64,000 nt of DNA from Clostridia bacterium (lineage in GTDB: Bacteria > Bacillota > Clostridia > Christensenellales > UBA1242), in the NCBI GenBank assembly GCA_017936585.1, contig JAGBFI010000038.1:46503-110502 (forward strand), given 5' to 3'. The first letter of the stretch is position 1. Each line of letters begins with the position of its first letter. Below, one piece after another: positions 10,001 to 57,391 of the stretch. Both the position numbers and the translations under genes were made by a program. The notes beneath the pieces are model-generated. The model saw nothing but the letters and a program-made list of their open reading frames with translations, did not search any database and was not told the origin of the DNA.

Positions 10001-13000
10001 CAGTTTCGGTCAGAGATTTATAGTTGTTTCCAAAAATTTGTTCCAACGTGTAAGAATTTCCAGAAGCCTCGAATGTGTATACAAGTTCGTCATCCTTATA
10101 CATATTAAGAAGATATCCAGTTGCATCCGTCACCGCATCCCAAGAAAGTCTCACTTCATTTGTGTCGGAAGTTCTTGAAACTCGCACTGCTGTGATGCTT
10201 GCAATTCTTGAAAGCTTGACGTCAAGCGTTGTGCTTGCCGATGAAATTGCACCTTCTTCGCTTGCAAAGATTATCACTGAATAAGTGCCGTTTGCCCAAT
10301 CATCTGGAAATCTGAAAGTAAAGTCGTTTTCTTTTGAAAGGATGAACATTTCATCGTTGTCGTTGCAAATCACTGTGTAGATTGTGTTGTCAGAATTGAG
10401 AGAATTGTCAACAACAAATCCGCCAGACTGCATTGTCACATTGTCAACCTTTTTAAGAACAGAAAGTTGACTGCTTTGAACATATTGTGGACAAACCAAA
10501 TAATATGTGTTTGCTTCCACGTTTGAATAACTGTTCACGAAAGCTGAAAGTTTGATTGTTCCACCAGCTGCCAAGTTTTGATCCACAAAAGATGTCAAAT
10601 CAAAAGTCAAAATTCCGGCTGTTGCATCTCCCGCATTTGGAGCAAGAACATATTTTGTTGCTGCTTCGCCGCCAGCAGGCGTGAAATCTACTTTCAAAAC
10701 AACTCCCCCCAAAACTTGAGCTACATTTTCTTCATCAAACTTCATTTCAACTGCGTGAGTGACAAAGCCATCCGCATTCGTCACAAACTCAACTGATGTC
10801 AGGTTGTTTGCTCTGACAATTTCAACACTGCCCGCTGTTGATGGAATTGCTGAGGCATTGTCTCCTTCGTTGACAACTCTGATTGAAAGCTTCAAAGTTT
10901 CGCCGGCACCAACAAAATTGTCATACATATCACTTGTGATGATGAAACTGTAAGAATCATCCTCTTGTGTCACTGAAAGACCTTCAATCCAAAGGTCATT
11001 TTTGTAAACCTTAAACACTCCCGCACCATAGTTTCCTGTGAAAGTCACTTTGATGTCAGGAAGTTTTGCTTCCACAAGATAGTCCTCTGACGACTCATCA
11101 GTTTCATAAACAAATTCAACATCGGCGATTGCTGGAGTTTCAAGTTTTTTGATTGTTTGCCCCTCGTTGTAAGGGGAATAGTTGAATCCCGCTTCGTTTT
11201 CCGCATGATAATAAACCGTTCCGTTTGCCACCACGCTGTAAGAAGGCTTGATGTGTGCATAAAGTTTGATTGAAATGTCGCCCGCTGCAAGATTTGAAAG
11301 ATTTTCAAGAAGGACCGCATCGGTTTGAATGTTCACTGAATAATATGTCTCGCCATCCTTCACCTCACTTGCAGGGTTTGTGGCAACATATGTATACACA
11401 CTCCCCGCCTTATCCTCAAACACAATCACATATTCAAGAACTGACAAAGTGGAAGAAAATTCATTCCAAGAAATGGTGTTTCCGTCAAAGTCAACAACAC
11501 AATTTTCTGGCTTGACTGTTTCCATATCCGCAACAGTCCAAGTTGAAACATTGCTGTTGAGGAAATATTTGATTGCTGTGAGGTTTTCGTCAGTGCCTTT
11601 GATTTCCTCCGTCCTTCCAATCAGTTGAAGAGTATACGTTCCATCCTCTGAAATTTCCACACTTCCCGTTGTGTTTTGAACTGGCTCTGCATTGCCAAAA
11701 GTCACTGCAACATAATCATATTTGCTTTCAGCCGTTGTGAATGTGAGCGAGTTGTTTGTGAGAGTCACCTTGTCAATGGCGCAAAGCTTGTAGATTTCCA
11801 CACTATTTGACAAATTGGATTCCAAATAGTTTGCATTTGTTACACTGATTTGGAATGTGAAAGTTTTGTTTTCGTCAAAATTGATTTCTGACAGGTCATA
11901 TGCAAGAGCAGAAGTTTGAACGGCCGTGTCAAATGCGTTTGAGGTGATTGTGTAGTTTGTCGCCGCCGTCACTGAAGCATCCACGCTGACTGCATCCCAA
12001 GTCAACATGTTTGTTTCAGCATCATAACGAAGGGGTGTTGTCTTCATTTTTTCAATTTCAAGACTTGTTGCTGAAACATCCTTTTGTGTGGTTGCATAAA
12101 GAGAAGAAATTTGCATTACTCCGTCTTTAAATCTGTTTTGATATGCATAAGCCGAGAACAACAATTTTGTTGATTGGCTATAGTATTGAGAAATTATTGG
12201 ATTTGCTTTCACAAGTGCAATGATTACATCCAAATTAACCGTCACTTCGCCGCTTGATGTTGAAACAAAATTTGATTGTTCGCCAAGAGGAAGGCTGAGC
12301 CCTTGATAAGTTACTGTCACCTGATTTGCAAGTCGAATGCTGAGGTTTTGCGTTTGCCCATTTGGAAGAACACAAGCAACATCCAAAACAAAATATTCCG
12401 CATCTCCAACTTGATTGTCTGTGAATTTAATTTTACCGTTTTCATATCTAAGGTCGCTTGGCTGCGTCAGACGATTGAAAGTGAAAGTTGAATCTCTGCT
12501 GTCAAGATAAACCATTCCGTTTGAAATTTCATAAGTTTTTGTGGCTGAGTCAAACACACTACCATTCTGCTCAAAATCAAGTATGAAGACGTTTTGTTGC
12601 GGAATGTCATAAACAGCCGGTTGCCCATTCACTCCAACTTTTTGACTGATGCCGTCACGAATAACAACTCTTGTCACTCCGGTCTTTGCGTTGACAGTCA
12701 ATGTTTTAGCATCCTCAGCCAGTAACAAATCATCCGATGAAACAGCCGCAATTCTTTGAACACCAAGGCTGTAAGTTTCGGTTGGAAGCCACAAGATTTC
12801 ATCGCTTGAGCGCCCAACGATTTTGATGTTTGCCACTGTTGAAAAATCGTCTGTCAACAGATAGATACTTTCATCTTCGGCGTATTTTTCAAAGTTGTTG
12901 TTTGTGCTGATTTCAATGTCATAACTGTCAATTTCGTCAACATTCCCAATCTTCAAGAAATATCCGGAAGCATTTGTAAATTCGCTCTTGAACGCCTCGT

Positions 13001-15074
13001 CATATCCAAATGACACCTCTCCAAGCACAAGCTGTTCTGCAACATAAAGCACTTTTTCAGCATGAGTTGTTGAAGAAATGTAGCGATTTACGTCGCCAGA
13101 AAGCGAATAGATTTTTACATAATAATATCCAACCTCAGAGAACTCATATTCCGTGCTTTCCACTTCACTTTCAACAAGTGTTGCAAGTGCGAATTCGTCC
13201 AGATTGATTGAATCTTTGTTTTGCTCATAGGTGGCCTTGTCAATCTCAAAAATTTGCACCTTATATTTCGCCGCATTTGAGATTTCTTCCCAAGAGATTT
13301 TCTTTTCAGTGCTGTCGCCACCAAGAATTTCAGAAGGAGCACTCAAAATCGATAAAGTCTTATCTTCAAGTGTGGAAGAACTGATTGAATAAAGGTCATT
13401 TTCGCCAGCCTTTGCCACAATCTGAAAATCAAAAGAAGTTCCTTCAAAGCCCAAATCTTCAATTCTACCAGCAAAGGTCGCCGTGCCAGCTTCCGCATCA
13501 ATCGTCATATTTTCAACTTTTTTATAAGTCGAATTTTTATTGACCCAAATCTCATAATCGGTTGCGTTTTCCACAGTGTCAAAAGTGAAAATAGACTTTG
13601 TTTGATCTTCACTGTAAGCATGAGCAATCTCACCAGAAACTGACGCAAGTTTTGTCACCTTCACAGTTTCAGACGCGTCACTATCAATCACCGTCACGCG
13701 TTCCCCAGAAATCAAATTCACAAGATTTCGCGCTTTTTGAACAACCTCAAGATCATAAACTTTTGCTTCATCAGGCAATGTCACATTCAATTTTCTTACT
13801 GTCACATCTTCGCTCAAACCATTGTATATTTCACCCAAAATTTCAAGTTCAGTTGCGATGAGTGATGAGCCTGCAACGCTCATTTTCACAATATTTCCGT
13901 TCGTCTCATTTCCGCCAAGACCGGTTAGAGTGACTTTCCCAAGTTTGTAGATTTTGCCAAAATTCAAAGCATCACTTTCAAAGAAAAGTCCGTTTTCATT
14001 CTTTGCAACAATTCGGGTTTCATAAACGCCACTTGCAAGCCCTTCCAAATTGGTTGAAATTTTCTCAGCGGTTTCAAGCGTCTTTGTTTCGGTTAAAGTT
14101 CCTGTCAGTTCAACAACAATATTTTCCGCATTTACAACTTGTCCAATCTCAAGTTTTCCATCAATTGATGTTGCCGTTGGTGTTGCAAGTTTTTCGATTT
14201 GCAAACTCTCGCTTGCAACTGGAAATTTGTAACTTGAAGAACTTGTCGAAGCATCTGTCACAATCACTCTCAATGTGTGTTTTCCTGCAGAAACACTCTT
14301 AAATTTTGAAGTCAAGTTTTTTGAATTTGCGCTCTGTGGAGAATCAAGCAAAATTCCATCAAACTCAACTTGATATTTTGCTCCAGCATGGGCTGTCCAA
14401 GAAAGTTCACTTCCGTTCCAATGCAAATCTTCCACTTTCAACTCGTCAATGATGAACCCATATTTGAAAGTTTGCTCTGCACTTGGCAAACTTTCAGAAA
14501 AATATCCTCTCGCACAAGCTTTCACTGTGATGTGATATTCCCCTTTTTCAAGTTGGAAACTGTTTGCGTTGCATGGCTCATTGATTGGTGTTATCACAGC
14601 TTTTGAAGGGTCTGTTTTTGAATATGTAATTTTTTTACCTTGAATCCAATAAGTAGCCGTTGTTGGCCCTGACTCGTTGCCGTAGAACGCCGAAACAGCA
14701 TCCCATGTCAACAACCCGCTTGCGTCAACCGAAAAATTCTTTGGAGTTTCAAATGGTTTTGTGACAACAAGCTCCATTGAATCGAGACTATTTCCCTCAT
14801 ATGTGGCATAAACAAAACTCTTTCCTGTCTTCTTTGCCTTCACACTTCTGCCAACAATGTCAAAAAGTGACGAGTCTGAAAAGTGATAAACAATTTCATT
14901 CTTCTCCACCGACTGAACAGAAAGATGATCGTCAAGGTTTAAACTTTCGCCAAAAGAAAGCGTAACCTCTGAAGAATCAAAAGTTGCTTCGACTTTTTTG
15001 AAAGAGCATGCCGCCAGCACGCTCGACAACACGATTGTCAACAAGGACATCAGAACAATGTTAAACTTTTTCAT
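4074..15074 (-). CDS. Giant (3,666 aa) surface lipoprotein with many FN3/Ig-like modules and a C-terminal GLUG-repeat module
   Basis: This is an uninterrupted 11-kb ORF. The start was chosen at the ATG at 15072-15074, which has an AAGGGG RBS, giving MKKFNIVLMSLLTIVLSSVLAAC (lipobox LAAC). FN3-like strand signatures recur, for example LLTWDAVSA, ELSWTAHAGAKYQV, ISWEEISNAAKYKVQIF and RLSWDAVTDATGYLLNMY. The last roughly 356 aa carry GLUG-like repeats such as SLVAGLVITNGGRIENV, YSGVVAINQGNNAIVTGC, VFVGGICYTNYATIENC and QIGGIVVTSTSSSILRNC. Confidence 0.85.
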   Translation of the reverse strand: MKKFNIVLMSLLTIVLSSVLAACSFKKVEATFDSSEVTLSFGESLNLDDHLSVQSVEKNEIVYHFSDSSLFDIVGRSVKAKKTGKSFVYATYEGNSLDSMELVVTKPFETPKNFSVDASGLLTWDAVSAFYGNESGPTTATYWIQGKKITYSKTDPSKAVITPINEPCNANSFQLEKGEYHITVKACARGYFSESLPSAEQTFKYGFIIDELKVEDLHWNGSELSWTAHAGAKYQVEFDGILLDSPQSANSKNLTSKFKSVSAGKHTLRVIVTDASTSSSSYKFPVASESLQIEKLATPTATSIDGKLEIGQVVNAENIVVELTGTLTETKTLETAEKISTNLEGLASGVYETRIVAKNENGLFFESDALNFGKIYKLGKVTLTGLGGNETNGNIVKMSVAGSSLIATELEILGEIYNGLSEDVTVRKLNVTLPDEAKVYDLEVVQKARNLVNLISGERVTVIDSDASETVKVTKLASVSGEIAHAYSEDQTKSIFTFDTVENATDYEIWVNKNSTYKKVENMTIDAEAGTATFAGRIEDLGFEGTSFDFQIVAKAGENDLYSISSSTLEDKTLSILSAPSEILGGDSTEKKISWEEISNAAKYKVQIFEIDKATYEQNKDSINLDEFALATLVESEVESTEYEFSEVGYYYVKIYSLSGDVNRYISSTTHAEKVLYVAEQLVLGEVSFGYDEAFKSEFTNASGYFLKIGNVDEIDSYDIEISTNNNFEKYAEDESIYLLTDDFSTVANIKIVGRSSDEILWLPTETYSLGVQRIAAVSSDDLLLAEDAKTLTVNAKTGVTRVVIRDGISQKVGVNGQPAVYDIPQQNVFILDFEQNGSVFDSATKTYEISNGMVYLDSRDSTFTFNRLTQPSDLRYENGKIKFTDNQVGDAEYFVLDVACVLPNGQTQNLSIRLANQVTVTYQGLSLPLGEQSNFVSTSSGEVTVNLDVIIALVKANPIISQYYSQSTKLLFSAYAYQNRFKDGVMQISSLYATTQKDVSATSLEIEKMKTTPLRYDAETNMLTWDAVSVDASVTAATNYTITSNAFDTAVQTSALAYDLSEINFDENKTFTFQISVTNANYLESNLSNSVEIYKLCAIDKVTLTNNSLTFTTAESKYDYVAVTFGNAEPVQNTTGSVEISEDGTYTLQLIGRTEEIKGTDENLTAIKYFLNSNVSTWTVADMETVKPENCVVDFDGNTISWNEFSSTLSVLEYVIVFEDKAGSVYTYVATNPASEVKDGETYYSVNIQTDAVLLENLSNLAAGDISIKLYAHIKPSYSVVANGTVYYHAENEAGFNYSPYNEGQTIKKLETPAIADVEFVYETDESSEDYLVEAKLPDIKVTFTGNYGAGVFKVYKNDLWIEGLSVTQEDDSYSFIITSDMYDNFVGAGETLKLSIRVVNEGDNASAIPSTAGSVEIVRANNLTSVEFVTNADGFVTHAVEMKFDEENVAQVLGGVVLKVDFTPAGGEAATKYVLAPNAGDATAGILTFDLTSFVDQNLAAGGTIKLSAFVNSYSNVEANTYYLVCPQYVQSSQLSVLKKVDNVTMQSGGFVVDNSLNSDNTIYTVICNDNDEMFILSKENDFTFRFPDDWANGTYSVIIFASEEGAISSASTTLDVKLSRIASITAVRVSRTSDTNEVRLSWDAVTDATGYLLNMYKDDELVYTFEASGNSYTLEQIFGNNYKSLTETGKISLVTLQNDMDVVFGVVTQGNSTANDSKEYRFNATIKGNSMQTSNIQVDEFGVLTFDSVAGNEYLYRFIAADGTILKTWNVVMATSEKTKIDTSSLEAGTSAFNLELIVKGSTDFDGETSSNNSNFVLDSAPYTTVGKVITLYKVEDIANVVRNEQISSDIAFEIVETFDKMFASSKADGILTGEAVEFVPEAYEEAYTFSLSTLIALLKESGIEITDSKIYFWQHKASEDSVFHVISKEYEFTFNYTITTEFVDVVKVGTNTGNANIEKDFINTFATFVNSDGGDTETIGMYARITQLSGFEGESGYAQTKYISKTTLLKNDYFGSSTFAINLTSLFEQDDLLSLYGEFKVEFSKVAVVGGVYALSPWEEAPQTFIRLNPVDDIALVNGSMRWTNDNEHAEKFLVFFVSTLENEVVMGSYFYHETERTTYDPTNYISTGHKYYLGVRSINSNPYILSSKIVYISNEDGAMQIYKNQISSPLKIESGAAYINWTKSGDFVSTLTSESGYSEIADLLASEVFVSPFTFSLQDLVDGNVKVRFKFTSTATGAQGLSKSFDVNAIDLLPNLYKFGIDNGLYNLEERLRNVYTNAQSTDVRRVISGLQQAIENGSYGVANSRLLFDKYFETLQTGEYALQYCLLGNNKSLTSGWYDYSNNNGENLIYVNSEPQVAVIREPDPDNDMITSYKVRMKKSEVYAYDATNGAVLQETNNYIMTLGGFTFALNTSSMTLTRMNVETATSVTVYEEDVSGTTYVYFYINYNGGDSLLGVYGDDIYLAKDENLTMKMEIFAVGNNFSMSSKSKQFSVTFLKIANMKIDKGVFSWDTDHNRMTSVYVQRTDGGAETEVKIDASKTTSIFSLEGKGAGIYTVKFIIKGEVRDNVVYIDSGIDQIDRIFKLEAPGMNNDNGFIGITSGNNATYLSYCYSSENLFAYNIYNENSISKGLSVDIFDTRSDKTLPLYYEVGVTGMDETKAGFDPVLYEYKLTEEFASVFYALSMGSTAELSFLQDPSEYYLTKITHDSGKNLAVRSEVTTFAASMLDSVKNVRIENGILKWDEVAGRGGDNPLAVPETEGTKVVYKITIEQYTSNLEDGKTSETTFNQCIKYTAENYFDFAVLKEGEVGYVEGSFIKATVQALTLNVSEEEIVGADQLVEGGWLYGNVQFVDSERYILMGNGSILKGIDRLKAVEADMIGVVEGKLTWDYVTSKDIATVEMFNNAYAFIVETEDGEEIAGQFEVTLKDDTAEDSNTFGIIFSENLGEMSVGTYNIVVFVTQGQDNPNKVIKSFGCATEITKLATVASEHFEIISDSQTETLSLEKYFANYPENSLVLSYGENQITLTKDTFKLFIVASEADIVNSYPAGYYAACLIVGEDDALALRFMATKAGTIFSDLSDDFVLKRSPWEAEQSISWDEEKQEFSWNYDYYSFSTKVEAEEKRYAYLATETVSLFNDSGLTESTQLLLEEGEEFEMIDTLEGTISVRIKYKEVMYYISRSAYEHKIVDVLDEDGNTVVETMDGSSLFKVVEEVGEYSIVESEGRYFKVQSSAIVTPTFYVEATYANNVGGNVETISVRTYTTQDRVFRPTIVCNSISLVVRVKLNNASIQSKELVFDGSVAFNLFASGDGTSMNPYVIENADQFRNIAYRQTKDDMLVEFVEQTTIGSTVVTNTNMEESKYYFIITKDLDLGEIDGILFKGEFTGVIDGLQDNTTNTVIAYTSTGVTALSSSVTIRAEDSNVNTSTPAVPLNFKRGSAIFENLNSSAIIKNIDIDATYGNSLVDIKNHSLVAGLVITNGGRIENVNLTGFRNNFVGNISTTERTIMAYSGVVAINQGNNAIVTGCQLSTSMSLDDSGSSQLVFVGGICYTNYATIENCVASTEGGGQTISVNCQEGSSAIQIGGIVVTSTSSSILRNCTNNMNISATSSVSGNSIVAYIAGVADRVSGSFSDLSSTGVIATVGLNVSNITKSDLIAVIL

Positions 15075-15447
15075 ACAAACCCCTTTAAAACAGAATTTGG
15101 TCATCGCATAGTGTTCAATTATCTCAAGAGTTTTTCACTGAAAAAAAACTCTCCCAATATCTCACATTTATTTTAACACTTAAAGGGGGAATTTATCAAA
15201 TAAAAAACAAAGAAAAAATATTTTTAATATATATTTTATATATAAAATCCAGCGAACAAAAATAAAAAAATCGATTTTTGGGTGCTGAAAAATAAAAAAA
15301 TATTTCTTTGTACCTAATTTATGGGTGTATAGAAAATTTTAAAAATCAGAAAAAGAAAATAAAAAACACTAAAAAATGCAAATTTTTAATAAAAAAAATA
15401 AGTTTTTTATTTAATTTTAAATCATTTTTTGAATTTATTAAATATTT

Positions 15448-21774: not shown

Positions 21775-22239
21775 TTAAGCATCCTTGCCAACAGCTGGAA
21801 TTGACATGGCAAATTCATAGAATTCCGTCATATCCTTGTTCATCAAATCAACATAAATGCATCTACCCTGAAAAACACCTTTCATACCGCGATACAAATC
21901 GAAGCTTTGCAAACCTGGCTCAATTTTGAATACGAGTTCATCAAATGGCAACCCATTGATTTCAACAGGCGCACCAAACTTCAAAGAAACATAAGTGCCG
22001 TTTTGAACTTCCTCTCTATACATTTCATCAGTGATAACCCCAAACGCCGGTAAAGTGTGGCTTCCGTCAAACAAAAGAGGAATTTGTTCCTGCAGCTTTT
22101 CTTGCTGATATTCAGTGATTTCCACCACATTGCCATCAACCAGAATCTCCGCATTTTCAACATACGGCAACACATCAACAACTTCAAAAAAAGACAACAA
22201 CATCATCGGCACTCCCAGAAAAAAGAAAAGAAATTTCAT
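21775..22239 (-). CDS. Hypothetical secreted or membrane-anchored protein (154 aa to the first stop)
   Basis: It has an AGAGGTGA RBS and a hydrophobic N-terminus, MKFLFFFLGVPMMLLSFF. I recognise no family. The TAA stop is followed in frame by 73 sense codons. Confidence 0.6.
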   Translation of the reverse strand: MKFLFFFLGVPMMLLSFFEVVDVLPYVENAEILVDGNVVEITEYQQEKLQEQIPLLFDGSHTLPAFGVITDEMYREEVQNGTYVSLKFGAPVEINGLPFDELVFKIEPGLQSFDLYRGMKGVFQGRCIYVDLMNKDMTEFYEFAMSIPAVGKDA

Positions 22240-22400: not shown

Positions 22401-25400
22401 TTATCCATCAATTTCCCATGCAAGTTTTGGATATGAATTTTGAGCAAAACGCCAAATTTCTTCGTCAAACTGAACGCCTGAATTATAATATTCACCAGCT
22501 TTCAAACTGAAGCAATCTCTCGCCTCCGCCCAAGTGTCAGGCTTTTGCGAAATGAGAGTGGAAGCATTTGTGAAACAATTTTCAATTCTGCCATTTGAGA
22601 CGCCGGCCAGCCCGCCGAAAGAATAATTTCCCAAAACCTCCAAAATTGCATAGCTGTGATTCACGGTTTTTGATGTTTCCGCATTTTCATATGTGCCATA
22701 AAGTCCACCAATCATGCCCTTTCCGGTCATTGTTGAAAGGTCAATCGTGCCATTGAAATAGTTGTTTTCGCTTTTTGCTCTACCATTTCCAACAAGCCCA
22801 CCAACAACAAATTCATCAGCGGTGCCGCTTAAAACAATTCTTGCATTTGTTGCATTTTGTGAAATGTCCAACGATTTATGTGCACCTAAGTTCCCCGCAA
22901 GCCCGCCGGCAACAATCTTTTCCGCACCATTTGATGTGATTGAAATTTTTGCTCTGTTGTCATTTTTGACAATTGAACCTTGCCCTTTCCCACCAGATAT
23001 TTGTCCGGCAATTCCGCCAATTTTCAAATTTTCACCACTTGTGATGATGTTTATTTCAAGCAAGTTGATGCAATTTTCAATCTTGCCGCCAGCATTTTCA
23101 GCCACAACTCCGCCCAATGTCAGGCTTTGACTCGTTTCAAATGAAAGTTTACCTCTGACAATGCAGCCGACAATTTCTCCTGAATTATATCTTGCAATCG
23201 CACCAAACGCTGTCAAATTTGAATAGTTTTTTTCTTGCAAAACAAACTCAACATCTTTGATACTTCCGCAGTTCTTTGCAAAAAATCCGCCACTCTGAGC
23301 ATTGATATTTGTCAGCCTATACCCCTTGCCATCAAGTTGTCCCGTGAAAAGACTCCCTTGCCAAGACTCTCCTTCCATATCGATGTCATTTTCCAGCACA
23401 AAGTTTGAATATTTTGCATTTGAAAGCAGAACTTTCAATTCGTTTGAATTTTTGATTCCCATTTCCTGAGGAATAAGATAGAACGACAGCACAAAAAGCA
23501 CCAAGTTGAGCATGCCTACCCCAAATAATGTTAAAAAAACTGACTTCCAACCTTTGGAGATTTTGCTTTTTTGAATGAAATACAGCGTGAAATTGAGCAT
23601 TCCAATCACAACTGAATAAATCAATGTAACAATCAAAAACTCTTGACTGAAATACATATACACTTCTTTTGGCATAAACAATGATATTGTCAAAAGCAAC
23701 GTTGTGAAAAGAAGTGGGAAAAATTGCAGGAAAATCGTCAAAAATCTCTTCAAAAACTTGTCTTTTTTGATTGTTTTCACTTTGTTGTCATATTCAGGCT
23801 GAGTTTCCTCGCTTGTCTTGTAAACACCGGACAAGTCTTTGCCAACTCCCGTCACAGCAATTGCATTGACGGATGTGTCAAGCGACAAATCCAAAGCGGA
23901 CAATCTGACTTTTGCTTTTTCAGAAATCTCGCAGAAACTTTCAAACTTTTTGATTTTTTCAAGAGATTTAATGTATTTCTTGAAAGGCTCAAGTTGAAGT
24001 CGATAATAATCCAGGCCCTTCTTTGCTTCAAGCCCGTATTCCTTTTCAATTTCAAGCAGAATTTGCTCGTTTCGCAAAACAAAATCTTTTAATTTTGATT
24101 TCAAAGAAATCAAGTCAAGCAAATCATCCACAAACTCTTTGCGCTCGCCCTTAAACAGATTTGATTTGCTGACAATTCCGGCATAAACTTCATCCTCTTC
24201 GTCAGACGAAAGTTCAAGCAAAGTTTCCCACTCTGGCATTTGCGTCACTTTCACCCTAGACATGATGAGGTCATTGTCTGTTTTGCAATGTGCCTTGATT
24301 TTGATCAGCTGCCAATAAAGCGGCCCATTTGTCTTGTCTTTTGAGATAGCAATCGCGAGATATTTTTCCGCTTGCTTGAAAAAGCCCATATCCTGAAAGC
24401 TGTCTGCAATTTGTTTTGCAATCGCCGAAAGTTCTGGCTCTAAGTTGACATAAGAAAGATAAAAATCTAACTGCTCTTCAGCTTTGTTTAAATCCAAAAA
24501 TGCAACCGGCAAAATCAAAGAAGCAACTGTGGAAATGTATTGTGCGCGCGAACTTTCGTTGAGATATTTGAAAACCTCTTGCAGTTCCTCGTGATTTCTG
24601 TATGTCAATTTGTCTTCATCTGTTTTGAAATTTCGAAGAAGAAGGGTAATGTTACTTTGATTATGCCCCGGGTCAAGCTCCAAAATTTTCTTGTAATATT
24701 GCTTATCATCACTGCGCTGAGCCAGTGCAAAATAGAAAGAAATGAATCTGTCAACATCGTTTTTGTCAAAACACTTCAAAACTTTTTCGATCAAAGAATC
24801 GTCCAGAGTTTCAATCGCTTTGCTTTCTGCTTTTGAAACAAAATTTTCACGATTTGGAGAATTGTAGCCCGCCAAATACACCAAAAATGTTTCATAATAT
24901 TCTTCACTATCAAGACCTTCAACCAGTTTTTCCCATCTGTCAACAAAGTCCTCAGCGAAACTCTTTGATGCATATTTCAAAATCATGTCGATCTTTTCTT
25001 TGTCCTTGAAATTGGAAATATTTTGGAAAAATTCTTCTTGCGTTTTGATTTGCTTGTCTGCCAACATCTCAGCAAACAAAATCTCTGCATTGTATGGGTC
25101 TTTTTCAAGCAAATCTTTTGTGAATTCCTTTGCTGAAGCAAAATCACCATTTTTCAATGTCAAATAAATCCACTTGATTTTTGTTTCATCATTCAGATTG
25201 ATGTTGTCAACATCATAGTTTCCAAGGTCAGCCGGAACAACTGTGTCCAAGTCGACATAGGTTCGCTTGTCCGGTTCCACACTTTCCACTTTGACAGTGG
25301 AAATTTTCGCTTCTTGTTTGGTTGTTTTTTGCTTTTGATTTTCAACCATAACTTCCAAATCTTGCAAAAATGAAATTGTCCCCGCCTCAATAACGCTTTT

Positions 25401-26183
25401 GCAAGACGCCAAATCCTTTGGCAAATCCGAAAGTTGCACTTCGTCAAGAATAACAATTGCACTTGTCTTGGCTTTTTTCTTTTGCTTTATGAAATAAAAA
25501 TATCTGTCCAACAAAAATCTATATTCGTTGAACCCTTCCTTACTTGATGCCACAAGCAGCAAAACCTTGCTTGTCTGCAATGCTTGAAAAACATCCTCTT
25601 CCTTCACGCGTGGAGTTTGATGGTGGAGCGAAAACACAGAATTTTTTTCTGAAAGCTTTGCATAGATTTCGTCCACTTTTTCTTTTGCTTTTTCATATGC
25701 AACCGCACACAAAATGATGTCATATGTGCTTTTTGATGCTTTATCCTCGTGTAATTTTTTGATTTTTTCAACACGCTTTGCAATGTCTGTGTACGTTTTT
25801 GCAACCTCTGGAGGGGCAAACTTTGTTGCTTTTTGAAAGTCCACATCCTCACTCAAATTGCAAATTTGGTCAGAGAAAAAATTAGGCTTGTTCCTTGAGC
25901 CTCTTTTGTTGTTATAAAGAACAATTCTGTTCTTCGCAAGAGCCTTGCCAAAATGTGCTTCAAACGATTTTGGATAGAGTGCAATGATTTTGTCAAACTC
26001 CTCAACGGCATCATCAAACTGCATTTGACGCAAAATTTCATATGCACCAACCGTGAGGACTTCTTCCTCTTTTGAGGCGTGTTCGTCCACATACAAAGTC
26101 CCGCAGAACTTGCATTTAACCATGTTCTGCCCGACAACTTTATATTCTCGTCCTCCACAATTTTTACAAACACGCTCTCTCAT
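22401..26183 (-). CDS. 1,260-aa multidomain membrane protein with N-terminal Zn-ribbon, TPR-like repeats, a TIR-like alpha/beta module, three TM helices and an extracytoplasmic GLUG-repeat domain
   Basis: The N-terminus has CKNCGG...CKFCG. Long helical repeat regions follow. The TM cluster is LTIFLQFFPLLFTTLLLTISLF, FLIVTLIYSVVIGMLNFTLYFI and VFLTLFGVGMLNLVLFVLSFYLI. The C-terminal repeats include LGGVVAENAGGKIENC, IGGIAGQISGG, VAGGLAGNLG, VVGGLVGNG, MIGGLYGTYEN and FGGLAGVSNGRIENC. It has an AAGGAAA RBS and starts 8 nt after the ATPase gene. Confidence 0.8.
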   Translation of the reverse strand: MRERVCKNCGGREYKVVGQNMVKCKFCGTLYVDEHASKEEEVLTVGAYEILRQMQFDDAVEEFDKIIALYPKSFEAHFGKALAKNRIVLYNNKRGSRNKPNFFSDQICNLSEDVDFQKATKFAPPEVAKTYTDIAKRVEKIKKLHEDKASKSTYDIILCAVAYEKAKEKVDEIYAKLSEKNSVFSLHHQTPRVKEEDVFQALQTSKVLLLVASSKEGFNEYRFLLDRYFYFIKQKKKAKTSAIVILDEVQLSDLPKDLASCKSVIEAGTISFLQDLEVMVENQKQKTTKQEAKISTVKVESVEPDKRTYVDLDTVVPADLGNYDVDNINLNDETKIKWIYLTLKNGDFASAKEFTKDLLEKDPYNAEILFAEMLADKQIKTQEEFFQNISNFKDKEKIDMILKYASKSFAEDFVDRWEKLVEGLDSEEYYETFLVYLAGYNSPNRENFVSKAESKAIETLDDSLIEKVLKCFDKNDVDRFISFYFALAQRSDDKQYYKKILELDPGHNQSNITLLLRNFKTDEDKLTYRNHEELQEVFKYLNESSRAQYISTVASLILPVAFLDLNKAEEQLDFYLSYVNLEPELSAIAKQIADSFQDMGFFKQAEKYLAIAISKDKTNGPLYWQLIKIKAHCKTDNDLIMSRVKVTQMPEWETLLELSSDEEDEVYAGIVSKSNLFKGERKEFVDDLLDLISLKSKLKDFVLRNEQILLEIEKEYGLEAKKGLDYYRLQLEPFKKYIKSLEKIKKFESFCEISEKAKVRLSALDLSLDTSVNAIAVTGVGKDLSGVYKTSEETQPEYDNKVKTIKKDKFLKRFLTIFLQFFPLLFTTLLLTISLFMPKEVYMYFSQEFLIVTLIYSVVIGMLNFTLYFIQKSKISKGWKSVFLTLFGVGMLNLVLFVLSFYLIPQEMGIKNSNELKVLLSNAKYSNFVLENDIDMEGESWQGSLFTGQLDGKGYRLTNINAQSGGFFAKNCGSIKDVEFVLQEKNYSNLTAFGAIARYNSGEIVGCIVRGKLSFETSQSLTLGGVVAENAGGKIENCINLLEINIITSGENLKIGGIAGQISGGKGQGSIVKNDNRAKISITSNGAEKIVAGGLAGNLGAHKSLDISQNATNARIVLSGTADEFVVGGLVGNGRAKSENNYFNGTIDLSTMTGKGMIGGLYGTYENAETSKTVNHSYAILEVLGNYSFGGLAGVSNGRIENCFTNASTLISQKPDTWAEARDCFSLKAGEYYNSGVQFDEEIWRFAQNSYPKLAWEIDG

Positions 26184-26191
26184 AGTTTTCC

Positions 26192-27340
26192 TTAATTTTG
26201 ATTTGTTGTCTTTTTGTTTTTCTTTATGTAACTGCTAATTTCAGTATTGTAGGCTTCAAAACTTGAAATCTCTTTTTCTGTCACACTTGGTGGCATGCTG
26301 TCTAAAACTCTGTCAAAATCCTCATTCGTCACAAGCACAACTTTGTCCGTTGCAATTGCCTGAAGAAGAGGCTCATCCTTGGCACGGTCACAAAGTTCTT
26401 CAATGTCCGCACCGCTGTAGTTCTCCGTTTGAGCCACAATTCTGTCAATATTGAAGTCTTTGGCAACTGGCACTCTCTTCATATTTTTCTCAAGCATATA
26501 TTTTCTTGCCGCAGCATCAGGCAAAGGAAGATAAATCTTCTGAGAAAATCTACCCGAACGCATTGCCGCACTGTCAATATCCCAAGGTCTGTTTGTTGCC
26601 CCAAGCAAAAGCAGATTTGGATTTCTTCCGGCAAAGCCGTCAATTTGTTGCAAAAATTCGTTCACACGCTTGTCATTGTGAGTGTCAAGCCCACGTTTGC
26701 CAATCAAACTGTCCATTTCGTCAATGAAGATGATGGCACGGTCTTGCTTGTTTGCTTCTTCAAAAAGTGAGTTGATATTTTTCTCGCTGTCGCCCACCCA
26801 TTTGCTGACAATATCTGAGCCTTTGACTGCATAAAACTTTGCGCCGACCTCATTTGCAATTGCCTTTGCAATCATGGTCTTTCCTGTTCCTGGAGGGCCA
26901 TACAAAAGCACGCCGCCACCAGTTTTTTTGCCATACATTTTGTATTTTTCAGGATATTTCACAGGGTTTATCATCTTGATTGTGATGGCTTTTTTCACGT
27001 CTTCAAGTCCCGCAACATCATTGAATGTGATTTTTGGGATTTCCGCTGTTTGCCATTTTTTGAGAGTCTCGTCCTTTTCCTCTTCCACATCGCTCTTTTT
27101 GTCGATTTTTGCAGGCTTCTTGCCCAAGTTGTCCGCAATGTCAACAAGTTTGCGCGCCCTTTCCATGCGAACTTCTTTCAACTTCCCTTTGCTGCGAACA
27201 GCAATCTGCATCATTGTTTCACTTGCAAGCAAGAAATTACGCTTTGCAAGCGCCAAATTTCCTCTCTCTTTCGCTTCTTTACCTTTTTTCATGTAAAGTT
27301 CAAAAGTGTCCGACAAAATTGTGATGTTGTTTTCTGACAT
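26192..27340 (-). CDS. MIT-domain AAA+ ATPase, Vps4/CdvC-like
   Basis: The ATG at 27338-27340 has a GGAGAGGG RBS. The N-terminal roughly 75 aa (ELYMKKGKEAKERGNLALAKRNFLLASETMMQIAVRSKGKLKEVRMERARKLVDIADNL) follow the MIT three-helix pattern. A single AAA cassette follows, with Walker A GPPGTGKT, SKWVGDSEK, Walker B IIFIDEMD and SRH ATNRPWDIDSAAMRSGRF. The C-terminal segment DFDRVLDSMPPSVTEKEISSFEAY resembles the Vps4 C-terminal helix region. Confidence 0.75.
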   Translation of the reverse strand: MSENNITILSDTFELYMKKGKEAKERGNLALAKRNFLLASETMMQIAVRSKGKLKEVRMERARKLVDIADNLGKKPAKIDKKSDVEEEKDETLKKWQTAEIPKITFNDVAGLEDVKKAITIKMINPVKYPEKYKMYGKKTGGGVLLYGPPGTGKTMIAKAIANEVGAKFYAVKGSDIVSKWVGDSEKNINSLFEEANKQDRAIIFIDEMDSLIGKRGLDTHNDKRVNEFLQQIDGFAGRNPNLLLLGATNRPWDIDSAAMRSGRFSQKIYLPLPDAAARKYMLEKNMKRVPVAKDFNIDRIVAQTENYSGADIEELCDRAKDEPLLQAIATDKVVLVTNEDFDRVLDSMPPSVTEKEISSFEAYNTEISSYIKKNKKTTNQN

Positions 27341-27382
27341 ACCCTCTCCGTTTTTCAAATTATGCCTTCCTCAGGCAAAAAA

Positions 27383-27982
27383 TTATTTGTCTGCGTCTGC
27401 TTCGATTTTTTTTCTGAGTTCTTCCATTTCTTTTTCGATGCTTTCTGTTGAAAGTTCGTCTTGCGTTGCTTGCTCCATGATGAATTTTTCAAGTTCTTCA
27501 TCGCTCATTTGCTTGCCACTCTTGTCTTTGCCAGCGTTATAGAATGTTTCTTGGCTCATTTCCATGAAGTTGTCCATTTGGTCTGTTTGAGTTTCAACTG
27601 CCACCATAGCTTCCTCAAACTGAGCTTGAATTTTTGCAAATTCTTTTGCATCAGCAAGCTTTGTCATTTCCTTTGAAATGTCACTCATTCCACGCAAGAA
27701 CTCGCTTGTCATCATTGTCACATCTTTCATTTGAGCAGTGATTTCAAAGTTGAGAAGCATCTCCTGTGCACGCTTTTGTTGTTGAACAGTCATCTTATAT
27801 CCAGAAAGAGCCAAGTTGAATTGTGTGTCCAAATCCTTAAGTTTCGCTCTTTTTGCGGCTTCAATAAACACCTTTTTTTGTTCTTCCAAGCGGTTGATTT
27901 GCTTGTTCATTGTGTTGATTGTTCTTTTAATCAACATCTTCTTCTCGATTTCTTTTTGTTGTTTAGATTTAAAAAGTCCCAT
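27383..27982 (-). CDS. ESCRT-III (Snf7/CHMP-family)-like protein, paralogue B (199 aa)
   Basis: It starts MGLFKSKQQKEIEKK, followed by a basic helical hairpin and then an acidic C-terminal half. The segment MTSEFLRGMSDISKEMTKLADAKEFAKIQAQFEEAMVAVETQTDQMDNFME parallels the alpha3-alpha5 region of CHMP2/3-type proteins. The C-terminal amphipathic tail is SIEKEMEELRKKIEADADK. It has a GGAGGA RBS. Confidence 0.65.
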   Translation of the reverse strand: MGLFKSKQQKEIEKKMLIKRTINTMNKQINRLEEQKKVFIEAAKRAKLKDLDTQFNLALSGYKMTVQQQKRAQEMLLNFEITAQMKDVTMMTSEFLRGMSDISKEMTKLADAKEFAKIQAQFEEAMVAVETQTDQMDNFMEMSQETFYNAGKDKSGKQMSDEELEKFIMEQATQDELSTESIEKEMEELRKKIEADADK

Positions 27983-27986
27983 TTTA

Positions 27987-28598
27987 TCATTCCTCCATCT
28001 TCATTTTTTTCTTTTTGATTGGTTCTTCTTTTTCAACATCTTGCATCAATTCGTTTTCTTCTGCAAGTTGACTCTCTTTTTCAAACATTGTCAAAATTTC
28101 TTCCTCATTCTTGCCAATTCCATAAATTGGTTGATTGAGGTCATATGCCGATTGCACCTCTGTGAAAAGTTCGTCCGCGTTAGTGAGCACATCTTCTGAA
28201 GCCACCCTTGTTACCAAAGCTTTGTTCAAGAATTTTGCCAAGCCACGCTGGTCTTGCAAAAGCTCGCTGAGCGGAACCTTTGTTTGAGTTTTATAGAACG
28301 CGTTGCTGTCATATGCTTCTTTCAACTTGTTCATAAGCCTGATGTTGTAAAGCAAATACATCCCTCTTTCCATGCAAGTCTGTTTTTCTTCGTGTAGATG
28401 AGAAATCTTCTTTGCATAGAAAAGTTGAAGTTCTTTGTTCTTCTCTTTCTTCCCCTTTTCCATGAGCGCATCAATTTCTTTCAGCTTTTGATAGACTTCC
28501 GCTTCCACCGTACGCTCTTGTCTTTCAAGTTCGCAAATGGAATTGACCAAATCCTCTCTGTTTATTTTCTTAAATTTGTTACGTCTAAATGGCCACAT
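27987..28598 (-). CDS. ESCRT-III (Snf7/CHMP-family)-like protein, paralogue A (203 aa)
   Basis: It has an AAGGAG RBS. The basic N-terminus is MWPFRRNKFKKINRED. A long coiled-coil hairpin follows (ELERQERTVEAEVYQKLKEIDALMEKGKKEKNKELQLFYAKKISHLHEEK...), then an acidic C-terminal region ending EEPIKKKKMKMEE. The overall layout is Snf7/CHMP4/CdvB-like. Confidence 0.55.
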   Translation of the reverse strand: MWPFRRNKFKKINREDLVNSICELERQERTVEAEVYQKLKEIDALMEKGKKEKNKELQLFYAKKISHLHEEKQTCMERGMYLLYNIRLMNKLKEAYDSNAFYKTQTKVPLSELLQDQRGLAKFLNKALVTRVASEDVLTNADELFTEVQSAYDLNQPIYGIGKNEEEILTMFEKESQLAEENELMQDVEKEEPIKKKKMKMEE

Positions 28599-28609
28599 AA
28601 ACCGCTCCT

Positions 28610-28969
28610 TTAATAATTATCCCCTTCGTTTATTTTGTAAATTCGCTCAAGCAAATTGTCATATTTTTTTCTCAGTGTTTCATCCGCAAGTTCCAGTGCT
28701 TTCTGACATTCAGGCAAATATATCGCGCTTTTATATTTCACCGGATTTGAAAACAACTCGTCCTCATTTGACATCTCAAATTTGACAAGCATCTGCCCCC
28801 AATAGGCATCCGCACATTTTTCGTCATATTGAGCCGCAAGCAGAAAGTTCAGTTTTGCTTGCTCAAAAAAGCCGTCCGTCAAATTCAGATATCCAAGCTT
28901 GAGTTCTTTCAAAACCCTTTCCGCCACCTCCGCAGGCAGCCCTTGCGATGTTTGATAAGTTCTTTTCAT
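28610..28969 (-). CDS. Small (119 aa) helical TPR-like protein
   Basis: The start overlaps the upstream stop (TGATG). The sequence GFFEQAKLNFLLAAQYDEKCADAYWGQMLVK is TPR-hairpin-like. It resembles residues about 55-85 of the 1,260-aa protein in the same operon. Confidence 0.5.
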   Translation of the reverse strand: MKRTYQTSQGLPAEVAERVLKELKLGYLNLTDGFFEQAKLNFLLAAQYDEKCADAYWGQMLVKFEMSNEDELFSNPVKYKSAIYLPECQKALELADETLRKKYDNLLERIYKINEGDNY

Positions 28970-29376
28970 CAGGCTTGTTCTTCCTTCTTTCTTTGAACTA
29001 TGTATGCTTCCACCTCTTCAAGCATCCTAAAGCACGTCTCTTGAGTGTTGTCTTTTGCCACAACAATCTTCAAATCGTCCAATTTGTTGGCAATTTTGCT
29101 GTCCACCAAAAGGGCTTTTTGATTTGTTGTTGGATTGAAAAATCTGATGTTGTCCTTCACTTCCACAAGTCTACGGCAAAGTTCATCATTGCCGTTGGCA
29201 TAAACGATGACGCTTTCAACATTTGCAACCATGTTTTCGATTGACTTTTTGTTTTTAAGAACTCCCTTTGATCCCCCATTCGCCTCGTCTCGTGGTTTTT
29301 TGATGTATTCTCTGCAAATGTAGTACACTGCAAATCCCACCACTGCCAAAATGATAATCACATATAAAGCAACCAT
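28969..29376 (-). CDS. Small (135 aa) N-terminally anchored membrane protein
   Basis: It has a strong AAGGAGGA RBS. The N-terminal TM segment is MVALYVIIILAVVGFAVYYI, followed by a basic stretch and a soluble domain of about 100 aa. I recognise no family. Confidence 0.6.
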   Translation of the reverse strand: MVALYVIIILAVVGFAVYYICREYIKKPRDEANGGSKGVLKNKKSIENMVANVESVIVYANGNDELCRRLVEVKDNIRFFNPTTNQKALLVDSKIANKLDDLKIVVAKDNTQETCFRMLEEVEAYIVQRKKEEQA

Positions 29377-29385
29377 AATTCCTCC

Positions 29386-30213
29386 TTAAAGTTTTTCGCC
29401 ACATTTGCTGCAGAACAGCGCATCATCCGCATTTTTCGCAAAGCACTTTGGGCATTTGTTTCCAATTTTCACTTTCATTCCGCACTTGTTGCAAAACTTT
29501 GCATCTTCTGGCAAGCTTGCGCCGCATCCTCTGCACACAAAGCTTTGAGATTTTTTCATGTTTTTGTATGCATTGTTAAGTTTCGCATAGTCCTGCTCAT
29601 CAATGATAATGTTTGCAATGTTGAAAGAAAAAACCGCAATTCCATATTCACTTTGAAGCTTGTGACTGAGTGCCGTCAGCACTTTTTGTGACATCTCTTT
29701 TTTGCAAACTGCAATTTGATTGAAAAGAACTCTATTTTCTTTGATATAGTCCACAATGACCGTTTCCATCACGGACACGACATTCGACTGCAACCTTTCT
29801 TGCAATGCGTCCGCAGTGAGGTCTTCTGATGCGCCGACAAGATAAAGAAAACTCTTTCTTGGGTCGCCAATCTGCACCTCGAAATCACCGCTGAAGTCGC
29901 AATAATAGTTTTCTTGAAGTTGCTCATCATACATCAAAAGCATTTGAGGCGTTCCCCAAAGCATTTTGAGTTTTGCCGTCTTGGACATGAAAAGAACTTC
30001 CAAAATTGCGTCAACCTCTTCTTTTGTATCCACAAATGCGGAAAGTTGAAATTTTCCTGACGACAAAGTTTGAAGCATCTGCCCATCCTTGATCACAATG
30101 GCGTTGTGAGTTTCAGGCACGATGAGTGTCTTTTTGAAATCGGCTGACTCAAGTTTCACTCTTGAGAATAAGTTGTCATTGTTTCCGCTAAATTTAATTA
30201 TATTTTGTTCCAT
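29386..30213 (-). CDS. SPFH/band-7-like protein with a C-terminal double zinc ribbon (YdjI / COG4260-like)
   Basis: The ATG at 30211-30213 has a GGAG RBS. The body resembles the YdjI / 'virion core protein'-type SPFH family (IVPETHNAIVIKDGQMLQTLSSGKF..., ...EYGIAVFSFNIANIIIDE). The C-terminus is FVCRGCGASLPEDAKFCNKCGMKVKIGNKCPKCFAKNADDALFCSKCG, which is four CxxC pairs forming two zinc ribbons. Confidence 0.65.
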   Translation of the reverse strand: MEQNIIKFSGNNDNLFSRVKLESADFKKTLIVPETHNAIVIKDGQMLQTLSSGKFQLSAFVDTKEEVDAILEVLFMSKTAKLKMLWGTPQMLLMYDEQLQENYYCDFSGDFEVQIGDPRKSFLYLVGASEDLTADALQERLQSNVVSVMETVIVDYIKENRVLFNQIAVCKKEMSQKVLTALSHKLQSEYGIAVFSFNIANIIIDEQDYAKLNNAYKNMKKSQSFVCRGCGASLPEDAKFCNKCGMKVKIGNKCPKCFAKNADDALFCSKCGEKL

Positions 30214-30255
30214 CAAAACTCCATGGGAAGTCAAGATATAAATTCCCTTAGTTGA

Positions 30256-30284
30256 ATTTTAACAAAATAAATGTCAAAAGTCAA
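30256..30284 (-). promoter_or_regulatory. Putative sigma-A promoter of the ESCRT-like operon
   Basis: The minus-strand read is TTGACT (30284-30279), a 17-nt spacer, then TAAAAT (30261-30256). It lies about 45 nt upstream of the first ATG of the operon. Confidence 0.5.
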
Positions 30285-30961: not shown

Positions 30962-31360
30962 ATGAACGTTGCAAGAAAATATGGTCAAGGAGCAGAACTT
31001 ATTTGGAGTGACAGAAAAAGATTTTTGGGAATGCCTTTGTCATTCACAAGATATCGTCTGGTGAAAAAGCCAGGCGCATGGACAAAACTTTTTTCTGATG
31101 TAGGATTTTTATTCTCATCAATTGATGAGGTGAACATTTACAGAATCTGCGACATCCAATTTCACCAATCTTTGCTTGGAAAAATTCTCAACACCGGAAC
31201 AATCACTCTTCTCAGCAGTGACGAAAGCATGCCAACCTTCATTTTGAAGAACGTGAAAAATCCTCTTCATGTGAGAGACATCTTCTCGACACTCATGGAA
31301 GAACAAAGAAAACTTCACAATGTTCGCCTCACAGAATTTCACGACCACGACAACTATTAA
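30962..31360 (+). CDS. Bacterial PH-domain (bPH_2 / YdbT-like) protein
   Basis: It has an AAAGGAGAA RBS. The segment VNIYRICDIQFHQSLLGKILNTGTITLLSSDESMPTFILKNVKNPLHVRDIF fits the bPH_2 pattern. Confidence 0.55.
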   Translation: MNVARKYGQGAELIWSDRKRFLGMPLSFTRYRLVKKPGAWTKLFSDVGFLFSSIDEVNIYRICDIQFHQSLLGKILNTGTITLLSSDESMPTFILKNVKNPLHVRDIFSTLMEEQRKLHNVRLTEFHDHDNY

Positions 31361-57066: not shown

Positions 57067-57391
57067 AAAAACTCCACATTTGTTTGCAAACAAGTTTTCC
57101 TACTTTTGAGATATTGTTTGCTTTTTCGACAAATAAATACTTTTTAAGTTGTTTCCGTCACATCTTTTTTTGAAGGCGAAAACCGCACGCACAAAAATTA
57201 AAGCAAAAATTATACTTGATAATTTAAATGTAATTTATCACAATTTTATTTTAGCATTTTTTGTCAATATTTCGCAACTAAAAATTAAACAAATATTCAT
57301 AAAATAAATAAATTTATTTTCTTTAAATTTTTAACTATTTTTTGTCGCATTTTTCGAAATAAATTTAAAGCATCAAAAAGGTGATTTTGGG

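Follow-up and report, generated by a model that had tools for sequence, protein, structure and literature searches.

A conserved seven-gene operon of gut Clostridia probably encodes an ESCRT-III/Vps4-type membrane-remodelling module

Organization of the operon

The window analysed here is a stretch of 64,000 nucleotides of chromosomal DNA from an uncultured gut lineage of the Clostridia, whose proteins are identical or nearly identical to entries annotated as 'MAG: Clostridia bacterium' (MAG, metagenome-assembled genome) or 'Candidatus Caccovivens'. [quoted passage not shown] All seven open reading frames (ORFs) lie where an initial annotation, made from the sequence alone, had placed them (22401-30213), and they are as tightly packed as it described, with gaps from g1 to g7 of 9, -1 (one base in common), 11, 4, 42 and 8 nt. 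The promoter that it proposed, TTGACT-17-(TG)TAAAAT, is likewise the top promoter-like match of a 9.3-kb scan of the region (10/12), and the start codon of g1 (ATG at 30213) has a GGAG 5 nt upstream. No convincing intrinsic terminator was found 3' of g7 (fold z-score 0.31). The features of the operon are as follows.

30256..30284, minus strand: sigma-70-type promoter-like site, TTGACT, 17 nt, TG-extended TAAAAT (score 10/12)
29386..30213, minus strand: g1, soluble SPFH protein (Band_7_1, PF13421, YdjI-type) with a C-terminal double zinc ribbon, from Pfam matches
28969..29376, minus strand: g2, 135 residues, predicted N-terminal membrane anchor (hydrophobic segment, residues 1-25) and cytoplasmic helical tail
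28610..28969, minus strand: g3, 119 residues, soluble and helical, a free-standing copy of the TPR-like module that recurs in g7, from BLASTP
27987..28598, minus strand: g4, 203-residue helical protein, candidate divergent ESCRT-III-like subunit, from an AlphaFold2 (AF2) model
27383..27982, minus strand: g5, 199-residue predicted Snf7/CHMP-type ESCRT-III protein, from the family profile and Pfam Snf7 matches in relatives
27401..27448, minus strand: MIM1-like C-terminal amphipathic helix of g5, residues 179-194, TESIEKEMEELRKKIE, conserved in the alignment
26192..27340, minus strand: g6, ATPase of Vps4/CdvC-like architecture, in which a linker joins a MIT-like domain to a single classical AAA cassette followed by a helix at the C-terminus
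27131..27331, minus strand: MIT-like three-helix bundle of g6, residues 4-70 (AF2, pLDDT 90.9)
26522..26911, minus strand: g6 AAA core (residues 144-273; Walker A, GPPGTGKT; pore loop, KWVGDSEK), from Pfam
22401..26183, minus strand: g7, 1,260-residue membrane protein; zinc ribbon and TPR-like modules on the cytoplasmic side, three transmembrane segments, and a GLUG-like domain of Gly-rich repeats on the extracytoplasmic side
23466..23747, minus strand: g7 residues 813-906, containing the three transmembrane helices predicted by a hydropathy scan

A Snf7/CHMP-type protein and an ATPase with a MIT-like domain

Relatives of g5 were collected by an exhaustive HMMER search of 1.84 billion cluster representatives, which recovered a family of modest size (314 clusters at E<=1e-3). 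A family profile of 69 full-length members, which are 23-53% identical to g5, was then searched against all PDB sequences. The best match was CHMP2A (E=1.9e-7), collinear over 133 residues (profile 11-143, chain 8-143), followed by CHMP3 (1.6e-3) and, more weakly, by CHMP1B, CdvB and Vps24. ESCRT-III proteins accounted for 9 or more of the 18 matches, and neither PspA nor Vipp1 was among them. As the family is charged and helical, a profile of the reversed sequences of the same members was run as a control; it recovered no ESCRT-III protein, and its best match was to an unrelated protein with E=0.27. The Pfam Snf7 model is matched by 23 of the 69 relatives (best 9.6e-7), with one relative in which the domain is part of a fusion protein (P0265) reaching the Snf7 cut-off at 27.3 bits, while PspA_IM30 is absent among the 25 most-matched families listed, of 94 in all, for these proteins.

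The charge of g5 is asymmetric, as is typical of ESCRT-III (residues 1-100, isoelectric point 9.99; residues 101-199, 4.30), and its N-terminal MGLFKSK motif is conserved in the family alignment; the initial MGLF resembles the start of CHMP3. At the other end of the protein lies a candidate docking motif. The MIM1 consensus known from work on Vps4 is (D/E)xxLxxRLxxL(K/R), and the hydrophobic spacing and terminal basic residue of the g5 tail, TESIEKEMEELRKKIE, fit this consensus, with a Glu in the window copy at the position where MIM1 has Arg. Of the 69 family members, 26 have a loose MIM1-like pattern, where shuffling of the tails gave 2.0±1.4, and seven have the strict consensus, for which shuffling gave 0.1; the pattern always lies 5-17 residues from the C-terminus. 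Judged by its family profile, the control and the Snf7 matches of its relatives, g5 is predicted to be a Snf7/CHMP-type ESCRT-III protein, as the initial annotation had supposed, and not a PspA protein or a generic coiled coil.

The N-terminal 80 residues of g6 are predicted to form helices at residues 4-25, 29-49 and 52-70 (AF2, pLDDT 90.9; this model and that of g4 were built from shallower alignments). The top structural neighbors found by Foldseek are the MIT domains of Sulfolobus Vps4 (2w2u and 2v6y; probability 1.0, TM-score 0.65-0.70), and next come the MIT domains of VPS4A/B, yeast Vps4, spartin, MITD1, ULK3 and katanin. The E-values of these matches (0.026 or higher) are non-significant for so small a bundle, and support was therefore sought at the sequence level. 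A profile of 21 orthologous N-termini searched against the PDB matched 2mpk (E=0.0024), a MIT domain that belongs to chitin synthase 1 from Saprolegnia (PMC8851075), and four of the 21 orthologues match the Pfam MIT model (best 1.2e-4). In view of the modelled fold and its Foldseek neighbors, the 2mpk match and the Pfam matches in orthologues, we accept this region as a putative MIT-like domain, the sequence part of the support being weak.

The remainder of g6 contains one AAA cassette (PF00004, 2.8e-42, together with AAA_lid_3) with conserved GPPGTGKT and KWVGDSEK motifs. The protein aligns from end to end with the NCBIfam CdvC model NF041006 (residues 9-366 against 7-366 of 370), at 207.8 bits for a cut-off of 650. 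Vps4_C (PF09336) is matched with E 1e-3 and 19.4 bits, below the cut-off of 21.3, and is carried by many g6 orthologues. The MIT-like fold and the single cassette of the ATPase described by the initial annotation thus stand, while its Vps4-type helix is sub-threshold and non-specific and the window copy lacks a Pfam MIT match.

Conservation of the operon and of the Snf7-like/MIT-like pairing

A scan of one genome per GTDB species with an alignment of five g5 sequences recovered 80 species-level loci in Caccovivens, Coproplasma and other Christensenellales-like gut MAGs, with g5 identities of 52-95%. Wherever there is sufficient flank, these loci keep the order g1-(g2)-(g3)-g4-g5-g6-(g7). The most conserved genes are g5, g4 and g6, and those least conserved or replaced are g7, g2 and g3. 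As g1, g4, g5 and g6 follow one another in this order in practically every one of the 80 loci with sufficient flank, the arrangement is not due to chance. In the closer clade, which is of genus level, the flanking genes are syntenic and the operon occupies a fixed position between housekeeping genes, which indicates vertical inheritance within that clade. A phage origin was considered and rejected, as no relatives occur on viral contigs.

The spacing of the central pair varies with distance. In the closer loci g6 lies directly downstream of g5, and in distant ones (e.g. L060 and L061) further DNA lies between them; in Coproplasma-type loci 1.5-4 kb of other genes separate the two. The g6 orthologues of several more distant Christensenellales-like loci (L055, L057, L058, L063, L064, L066, L069 and L072) are 481-531 residues long and carry, after a low-complexity linker, an extra C-terminal domain of about 110-150 residues with a conserved 'PxxEFxx...Y.C...W.SE' pattern.

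Beyond these loci, seven g5 relatives with 23-39% identity, from hosts of 32-59% G+C content, were sampled for their genomic contexts. In all seven a Snf7-like gene precedes, or is fused to, an AAA+ or other P-loop ATPase, and all six partner ATPases for which the DNA was at hand match the profile of the MIT-like N-terminal domain. One of these six has an AAA core of the SpoVK/CbbX type. As the MIT-like domain is kept even with such a core, the conserved pairing is that of a Snf7-like with a MIT-like domain, whatever the motor. A Band_7 gene lies upstream in three of the distant loci. The expectation of the initial annotation that the neighborhood should recur in related genomes is thus borne out, both by the order kept in the 80 loci and by the pairing in the seven divergent contexts.

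Several other architectures were encountered among the g5 relatives. The Snf7-like domain is found N-terminal to a RuvB-like AAA+ domain in P0167, P0174, P0180, P0190, P0233, P0248 and P0265, some of these fusions also ending in a NERD nuclease or in a zinc ribbon of the TFIIB type, and it is fused to FtsK/SpoIIIE translocase domains in P0182, P0188 and P0189. Such fusions suggest membrane-tethered DNA-handling machines. One locus (L081) combines a fused g5 relative (L081:8001-9668), a gene directly upstream of this Snf7-RuvB fusion in which the MIT-like domain is joined to a SpoVK/CbbX/EccA-type AAA core (L081:6860-7978), and a second, free Snf7-like gene (L081:3045-3635). Genes for Ser/Thr kinases, PP2C phosphatases and proteins with FHA or VWA domains adjoin the module of Band_7, Snf7-like and MIT-AAA genes at L083:2089-4429, L087:2264-5272 and L089:6918-8207.

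The g4 protein, the accessory genes and the surroundings

The g4 family comprises 862 clusters at 90% identity. Like g5, g4 has a basic N-terminal and an acidic C-terminal half; it also has a conserved hydrophobic N-terminus (MWPF) and is tightly coupled to g5. Scans of g4 alone against Pfam, NCBIfam and PADLOC gave nothing useful. Its AF2 model, of medium confidence (pLDDT 67.7), consists of a well-predicted hairpin (residues 14-51 and 55-97) and three shorter helices. An invariant 'IYG…(D/E)(D/E)(E/L)LLxMFE' segment lies near the C-terminus (residues ~158-173) and might serve as an additional docking motif, either for the MIT domain or for a different partner. A second ESCRT-III subunit is a plausible, if unproven and weakly supported, assignment for g4. 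Of the two Snf7/CHMP-like coiled-coil proteins proposed by the initial annotation, g5 is borne out, and for g4 there are the medium-confidence model and structural similarities to CdvB2 that fall short of significance.

The initial annotation had described the other four genes largely as they were found. The Band_7_1 match of g1 (1.1e-13) is well above the cut-off (51.8 bits against 24), Zn_Ribbon_1 and DZR are also matched above cut-off, and four CxxC pairs are present at residues 227-271. Hydropathy indicated no transmembrane segment, and the predicted architecture of g1 is that of YdjI; a comparison with PDB sequences was uninformative. The g2 protein, with its single N-terminal transmembrane segment, matches no Pfam, NCBIfam or PADLOC family and is conserved in the closer loci. 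The TPR-like nature of g3, which has no Pfam match of its own, follows from its similarity to residues 600-673 of g7 (BLASTP, E=2e-5). For g7 itself the zinc ribbon (CxxC...CxxC at residues 6-27), the TPR-like part (TPR_14, 3.7e-7) and the three transmembrane helices agree with the earlier description, while the GLUG match is weak and sub-threshold (0.002); a comparison of the ectodomain with PDB sequences was uninformative. It is the least conserved gene of the operon (22-52% identity) and is replaced in distant loci.

The operon is flanked by housekeeping genes, pyruvate formate-lyase and TypA/BipA. On the same strand, 161 nt downstream of g7, lies a gene for a 154-residue protein with an N-terminal hydrophobic segment (21775-22239, minus strand), which seems to have its own TATAAT-like -10 element. 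It is syntenic in 35 loci, often with about 4 kb of extra DNA between it and g7. A bPH_2 (bacterial PH-domain) gene (30962-31360, plus strand) is divergent from the operon and is found near it in 43 of the 80 loci. Elsewhere in the window are three giant minus-strand ORFs, 4074-15104 (3,676 residues), 45004-51924 (2,306 residues) and 51925-57093 (1,722 residues), with no Pfam match at E<=0.001. They are rich in Thr, Ser and Val and presumably encode surface proteins; the first has a lipoprotein-like signal (…LAAC), and the other two lie end to end and could together form a single gene of about 4,000 residues.

Weighing the alternatives

The operon probably encodes a bacterial ESCRT-III/Vps4-type membrane-remodelling module. 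The initial annotation had made this proposal depend on g5 being neither a generic coiled coil nor a PspA protein, on a MIT-like N-terminus of the ATPase and on a conserved gene neighborhood, and this is what was found. Several results nevertheless weigh against it. The window g5 by itself matches no Pfam, NCBIfam or PADLOC model, the expected Snf7 match being absent even at E<=10, and no Pfam MIT match was obtained for the window g6 N-terminus, again even at E<=10. The Foldseek E-values of that N-terminus are non-significant, and so are those of g4, whose top matches are CdvB2 filaments (probability 0.99, TM-score 0.45-0.48, E ~0.08), with Asgard ESCRT-IIIB, CHMP2A and IST1/CHMP1B lower in the list. 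No sequence similarity of g4 to ESCRT-III proteins or to g5 was detected (hhalign probability 1% against the g5 family), nor any match of its family profile in the PDB or Pfam. The NCBIfam CDC48 model, on the AAA part of g6 alone, scores slightly higher (220.3 bits) than CdvC, the AAA cassette has about equal scores on the CDC48-D2, PAN, CdvC and FtsH models, with CDC48 and PAN as good as CdvC or better, and the match of the C-terminal 83 residues to Cdc48-D2, VAT, FIGL1 and AFG2 is no weaker than that to CdvC. The assignment of the g6 core to the Vps4 clade was rejected, since neither these C-terminal residues nor the scores of eight g6 relatives, which are about equal on the NCBIfam CDC48, PAN, CdvC and FtsH models, discriminate between the clades. 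The protein is 'Vps4-like' by architecture and context, and not by demonstrated clade membership.

Taken to their extreme, such results would mean that there is no ESCRT relationship at all, and that the operon encodes generic coiled coils with a CDC48-like quality-control ATPase whose N-terminal domain is TPR-like, the resemblance being one of composition. The window g5 and g6 N-terminus without Snf7 or MIT matches at curated thresholds, the high HMMER bias of the CHMP2A match (22.9), the Foldseek E-values above 0.01 and the closeness of the g6 core to the CDC48 model would all fit such an explanation. We regard it as very improbable. The collinear and specific nature of the PDB matches, at least half of which are to ESCRT-III proteins, and the independent Pfam Snf7 and MIT matches in relatives argue against it, and the points that do so most strongly are the reversed profile, which abolishes every ESCRT-III match, and the specificity with which the g6 N-terminus has Vps4 MIT domains as its top structural neighbors. 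Another alternative is an envelope-stress system of the PspA/LiaH type, with PspA-like coiled-coil proteins and an ATPase that is a regulator or a general unfoldase and not a MIT-guided disassemblase. PspA and Snf7 belong to one superfamily, and the YdjI-type SPFH-zinc-ribbon partner and the membrane adaptors mirror pspA-ydjGHI of Bacillus subtilis (PMC8581546; PMC11237479). However, the specific matches of the g5 family are all to CHMP, Snf7 or CdvB, and no PspA_IM30 (PF04012) or solved PspA/Vipp1 structure was matched by g4, g5 or the family profiles among the families listed. The coupling of the MIT-like domain to Snf7-like genes is, moreover, strict and withstands a change of AAA type, and the conserved MIM1-like tail argues for a direct interaction between MIT domain and tail. 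An arrangement of this type is accordingly quite unlikely.

The operon might instead be a conflict or defence system and not a remodelling machine of the housekeeping kind. It could be an immunity module that acts on membranes or repairs them, for example when phages lyse the cell or toxins form pores, or it could be an effector of abortive infection. This would accommodate the fusions of g5 relatives to RuvB-like AAA+ domains with NERD nucleases or to FtsK/SpoIIIE domains, the Ser/Thr kinase, PP2C, FHA, VWA and trypsin genes that adjoin distant loci, the variation of g2, g3 and g7 between lineages, and the matches of g6 to the PADLOC IetA and NCBIfam IteA ATPase models. These last scores, though, are weaker than those for CDC48 and CdvC and reflect generic AAA similarity, and g6 is the only gene of the operon that matches PADLOC. 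The chromosomal position of the operon is fixed between housekeeping genes throughout a genus-level clade, no relative is found on viral contigs, and kinase, phosphatase and FHA neighbors are typical of archaeal ESCRT loci too (PMC10936438). We consider a defence function unlikely.

Proposed mechanism and function

From the domain identities and gene linkage of this probable ESCRT-III/Vps4-type module we infer the following scheme. The g5 protein, probably together with g4, would polymerise on the cytoplasmic face of the membrane, which it might contact through a core formed by a basic helical hairpin and through a hydrophobic motif at the N-terminus (MGLFKSK in g5, MWPF in g4). Recruitment or positioning of the polymer may fall to g1, with its SPFH domain and zinc ribbons, and to g2 and g7 in the membrane, together with g3. 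This would parallel the case of B. subtilis, where YdjI with YdjG/H recruits PspA to the membrane (PMC8581546); SPFH-zinc-ribbon proteins also occur in the archaeal Meth_adaptin ESCRT loci (PMC10936438). A hexameric g6 would dock by its MIT-like domain on the C-terminal MIM1-like helix of g5 and, driven by ATP, extract subunits through its KW pore loop, resulting in turnover of the polymer and remodelling of the membrane. Physiologically, the module would most likely serve to repair or maintain the cytoplasmic membrane when the envelope is under stress. We prefer this role to vesicle scission or a function related to division; the latter two are candidate roles.

Comparison with known systems

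In the archaeal ESCRT-III/Vps4 systems (CdvB/CdvC of the TACK archaea and the euryarchaeal Main, Halo_FHA and Meth_adaptin types; Makarova et al. 2024, PMC10936438), as in the operon, a Snf7-type gene directly precedes the gene for an ATPase that combines a MIT domain with one AAA cassette. The g6 protein is collinear with archaeal CdvC (~370-380 residues, without a large insert), and g5 resembles archaeal ESCRT-III proteins in its C-terminal MIM-like helix. In the Meth_adaptin loci, as here, an SPFH and zinc-ribbon protein accompanies the pair, and the Ser/Thr kinase, phosphatase and FHA neighbors of the distant bacterial relatives recall those of the Main and Halo_FHA loci (PMC10936438). Unlike the archaeal systems, the operon belongs to a bacterium of the Bacillota. 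Neither CdvA nor any ESCRT-II winged-helix or adaptin-like gene was recognised, g6 scores below the CdvC cut-off with an AAA core not assignable to the Vps4 clade, and the accessory genes g2, g3 and g7, with their TPR-like modules, three transmembrane helices and GLUG-like ectodomain, are unrelated to the archaeal ones.

In sequence, the g5 family best matches the eukaryotic CHMP2 and CHMP3 (Vps2/Vps24); the MIT fold of g6 is shared with VPS4A/B, and the C-terminal helix of g5 follows the hydrophobic pattern of MIM1. Identity is, however, very low, a context of ESCRT-0, -I or -II is lacking, and the beta-domain of Vps4 and its Vta1 partner are not evident.

Within bacteria, a close parallel is pspA-ydjGHI (samGHI) of B. 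subtilis, where a protein of the ESCRT-III superfamily is likewise encoded with a soluble Band_7_1 SPFH-zinc-ribbon protein, a zinc-ribbon membrane protein and a further membrane anchor. The polymer subunit is PspA there and of the Snf7/CHMP type here, an ATPase is encoded only here, g7 is far larger than YdjG, and no equivalent of the TPM-domain protein YdjH is seen. [quoted passage not shown] In its VPS4-like operons a Vps4-related classical AAA ATPase is linked to a large protein with TPR and six transmembrane segments, comparable to g7, but the snf7 gene is reported to be displaced and the phyla listed are without Bacillota. Its operons of PspA with a double-AAA protein show that PspA/Snf7-superfamily proteins have AAA partners in bacteria including Clostridia, yet the partner of the Clostridium PspA has two AAA domains and no MIT domain. 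Here, unlike in any of these operons, genes for a soluble Snf7-type protein, a MIT-single-AAA ATPase and an SPFH protein stand together.

Implications

ESCRT homologues have been stated not to occur in bacteria (Makarova et al. 2024, PMC10936438), and a recent review describes the Vps4-like ATPase as one that 'appears absent in bacteria' (2025, PMC7619361). The exceptions reported by the PSP survey (PMC11237479 and supplement) are VPS4-like ATPases without Snf7, the Clostridium PspA with its double-AAA partner and membrane-anchored divergent Snf7 proteins. The initial annotation had suspected that pairs of Snf7 with AAA+ proteins might already be listed in such surveys; related cases are, but none of them is the arrangement seen here. 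In the full-text literature, covered incompletely so that a prior description is possible, nothing was found on ESCRT or Vps4 in Bacillota, nor any account of such a bacterial system. We regard the operon as a probable case of machinery of the ESCRT-III/Vps4 type; the domain of life in which it occurs is unexpected, and its accessories are distinct.

A Snf7, MIT-AAA and SPFH operon in bacteria would revise the known distribution of these proteins and open the question of whether the pair of filament and disassemblase was transferred between domains or is of ancient origin. It would also link the PspA-YdjI stress module to the archaeal ESCRT loci with SPFH-zinc-ribbon proteins, and offer a compact seven-gene system for reconstitution. 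The pairing of MIT-like and Snf7-like domains with a swapped AAA core would be a natural experiment on what defines the interaction. More tentatively, it is possible, but by no means the likelier case, that the operon represents a genuine, vertically maintained bacterial ESCRT machine, in which a MIM-tailed filament of the Snf7 type, a disassemblase of the MIT-AAA type and a recruiter of the SPFH type carry out ATP-driven membrane scission or repair, and that it belongs to a wider, hitherto unrecognised bacterial family (at least 314 clusters at 50% identity, from hosts of 29-59% G+C content). If this were true, the coupling of ESCRT-III to MIT-AAA ATPases would not be an archaeal invention limited to the archaea and the eukaryotes, and would either go back further than assumed or have passed from one domain to another.

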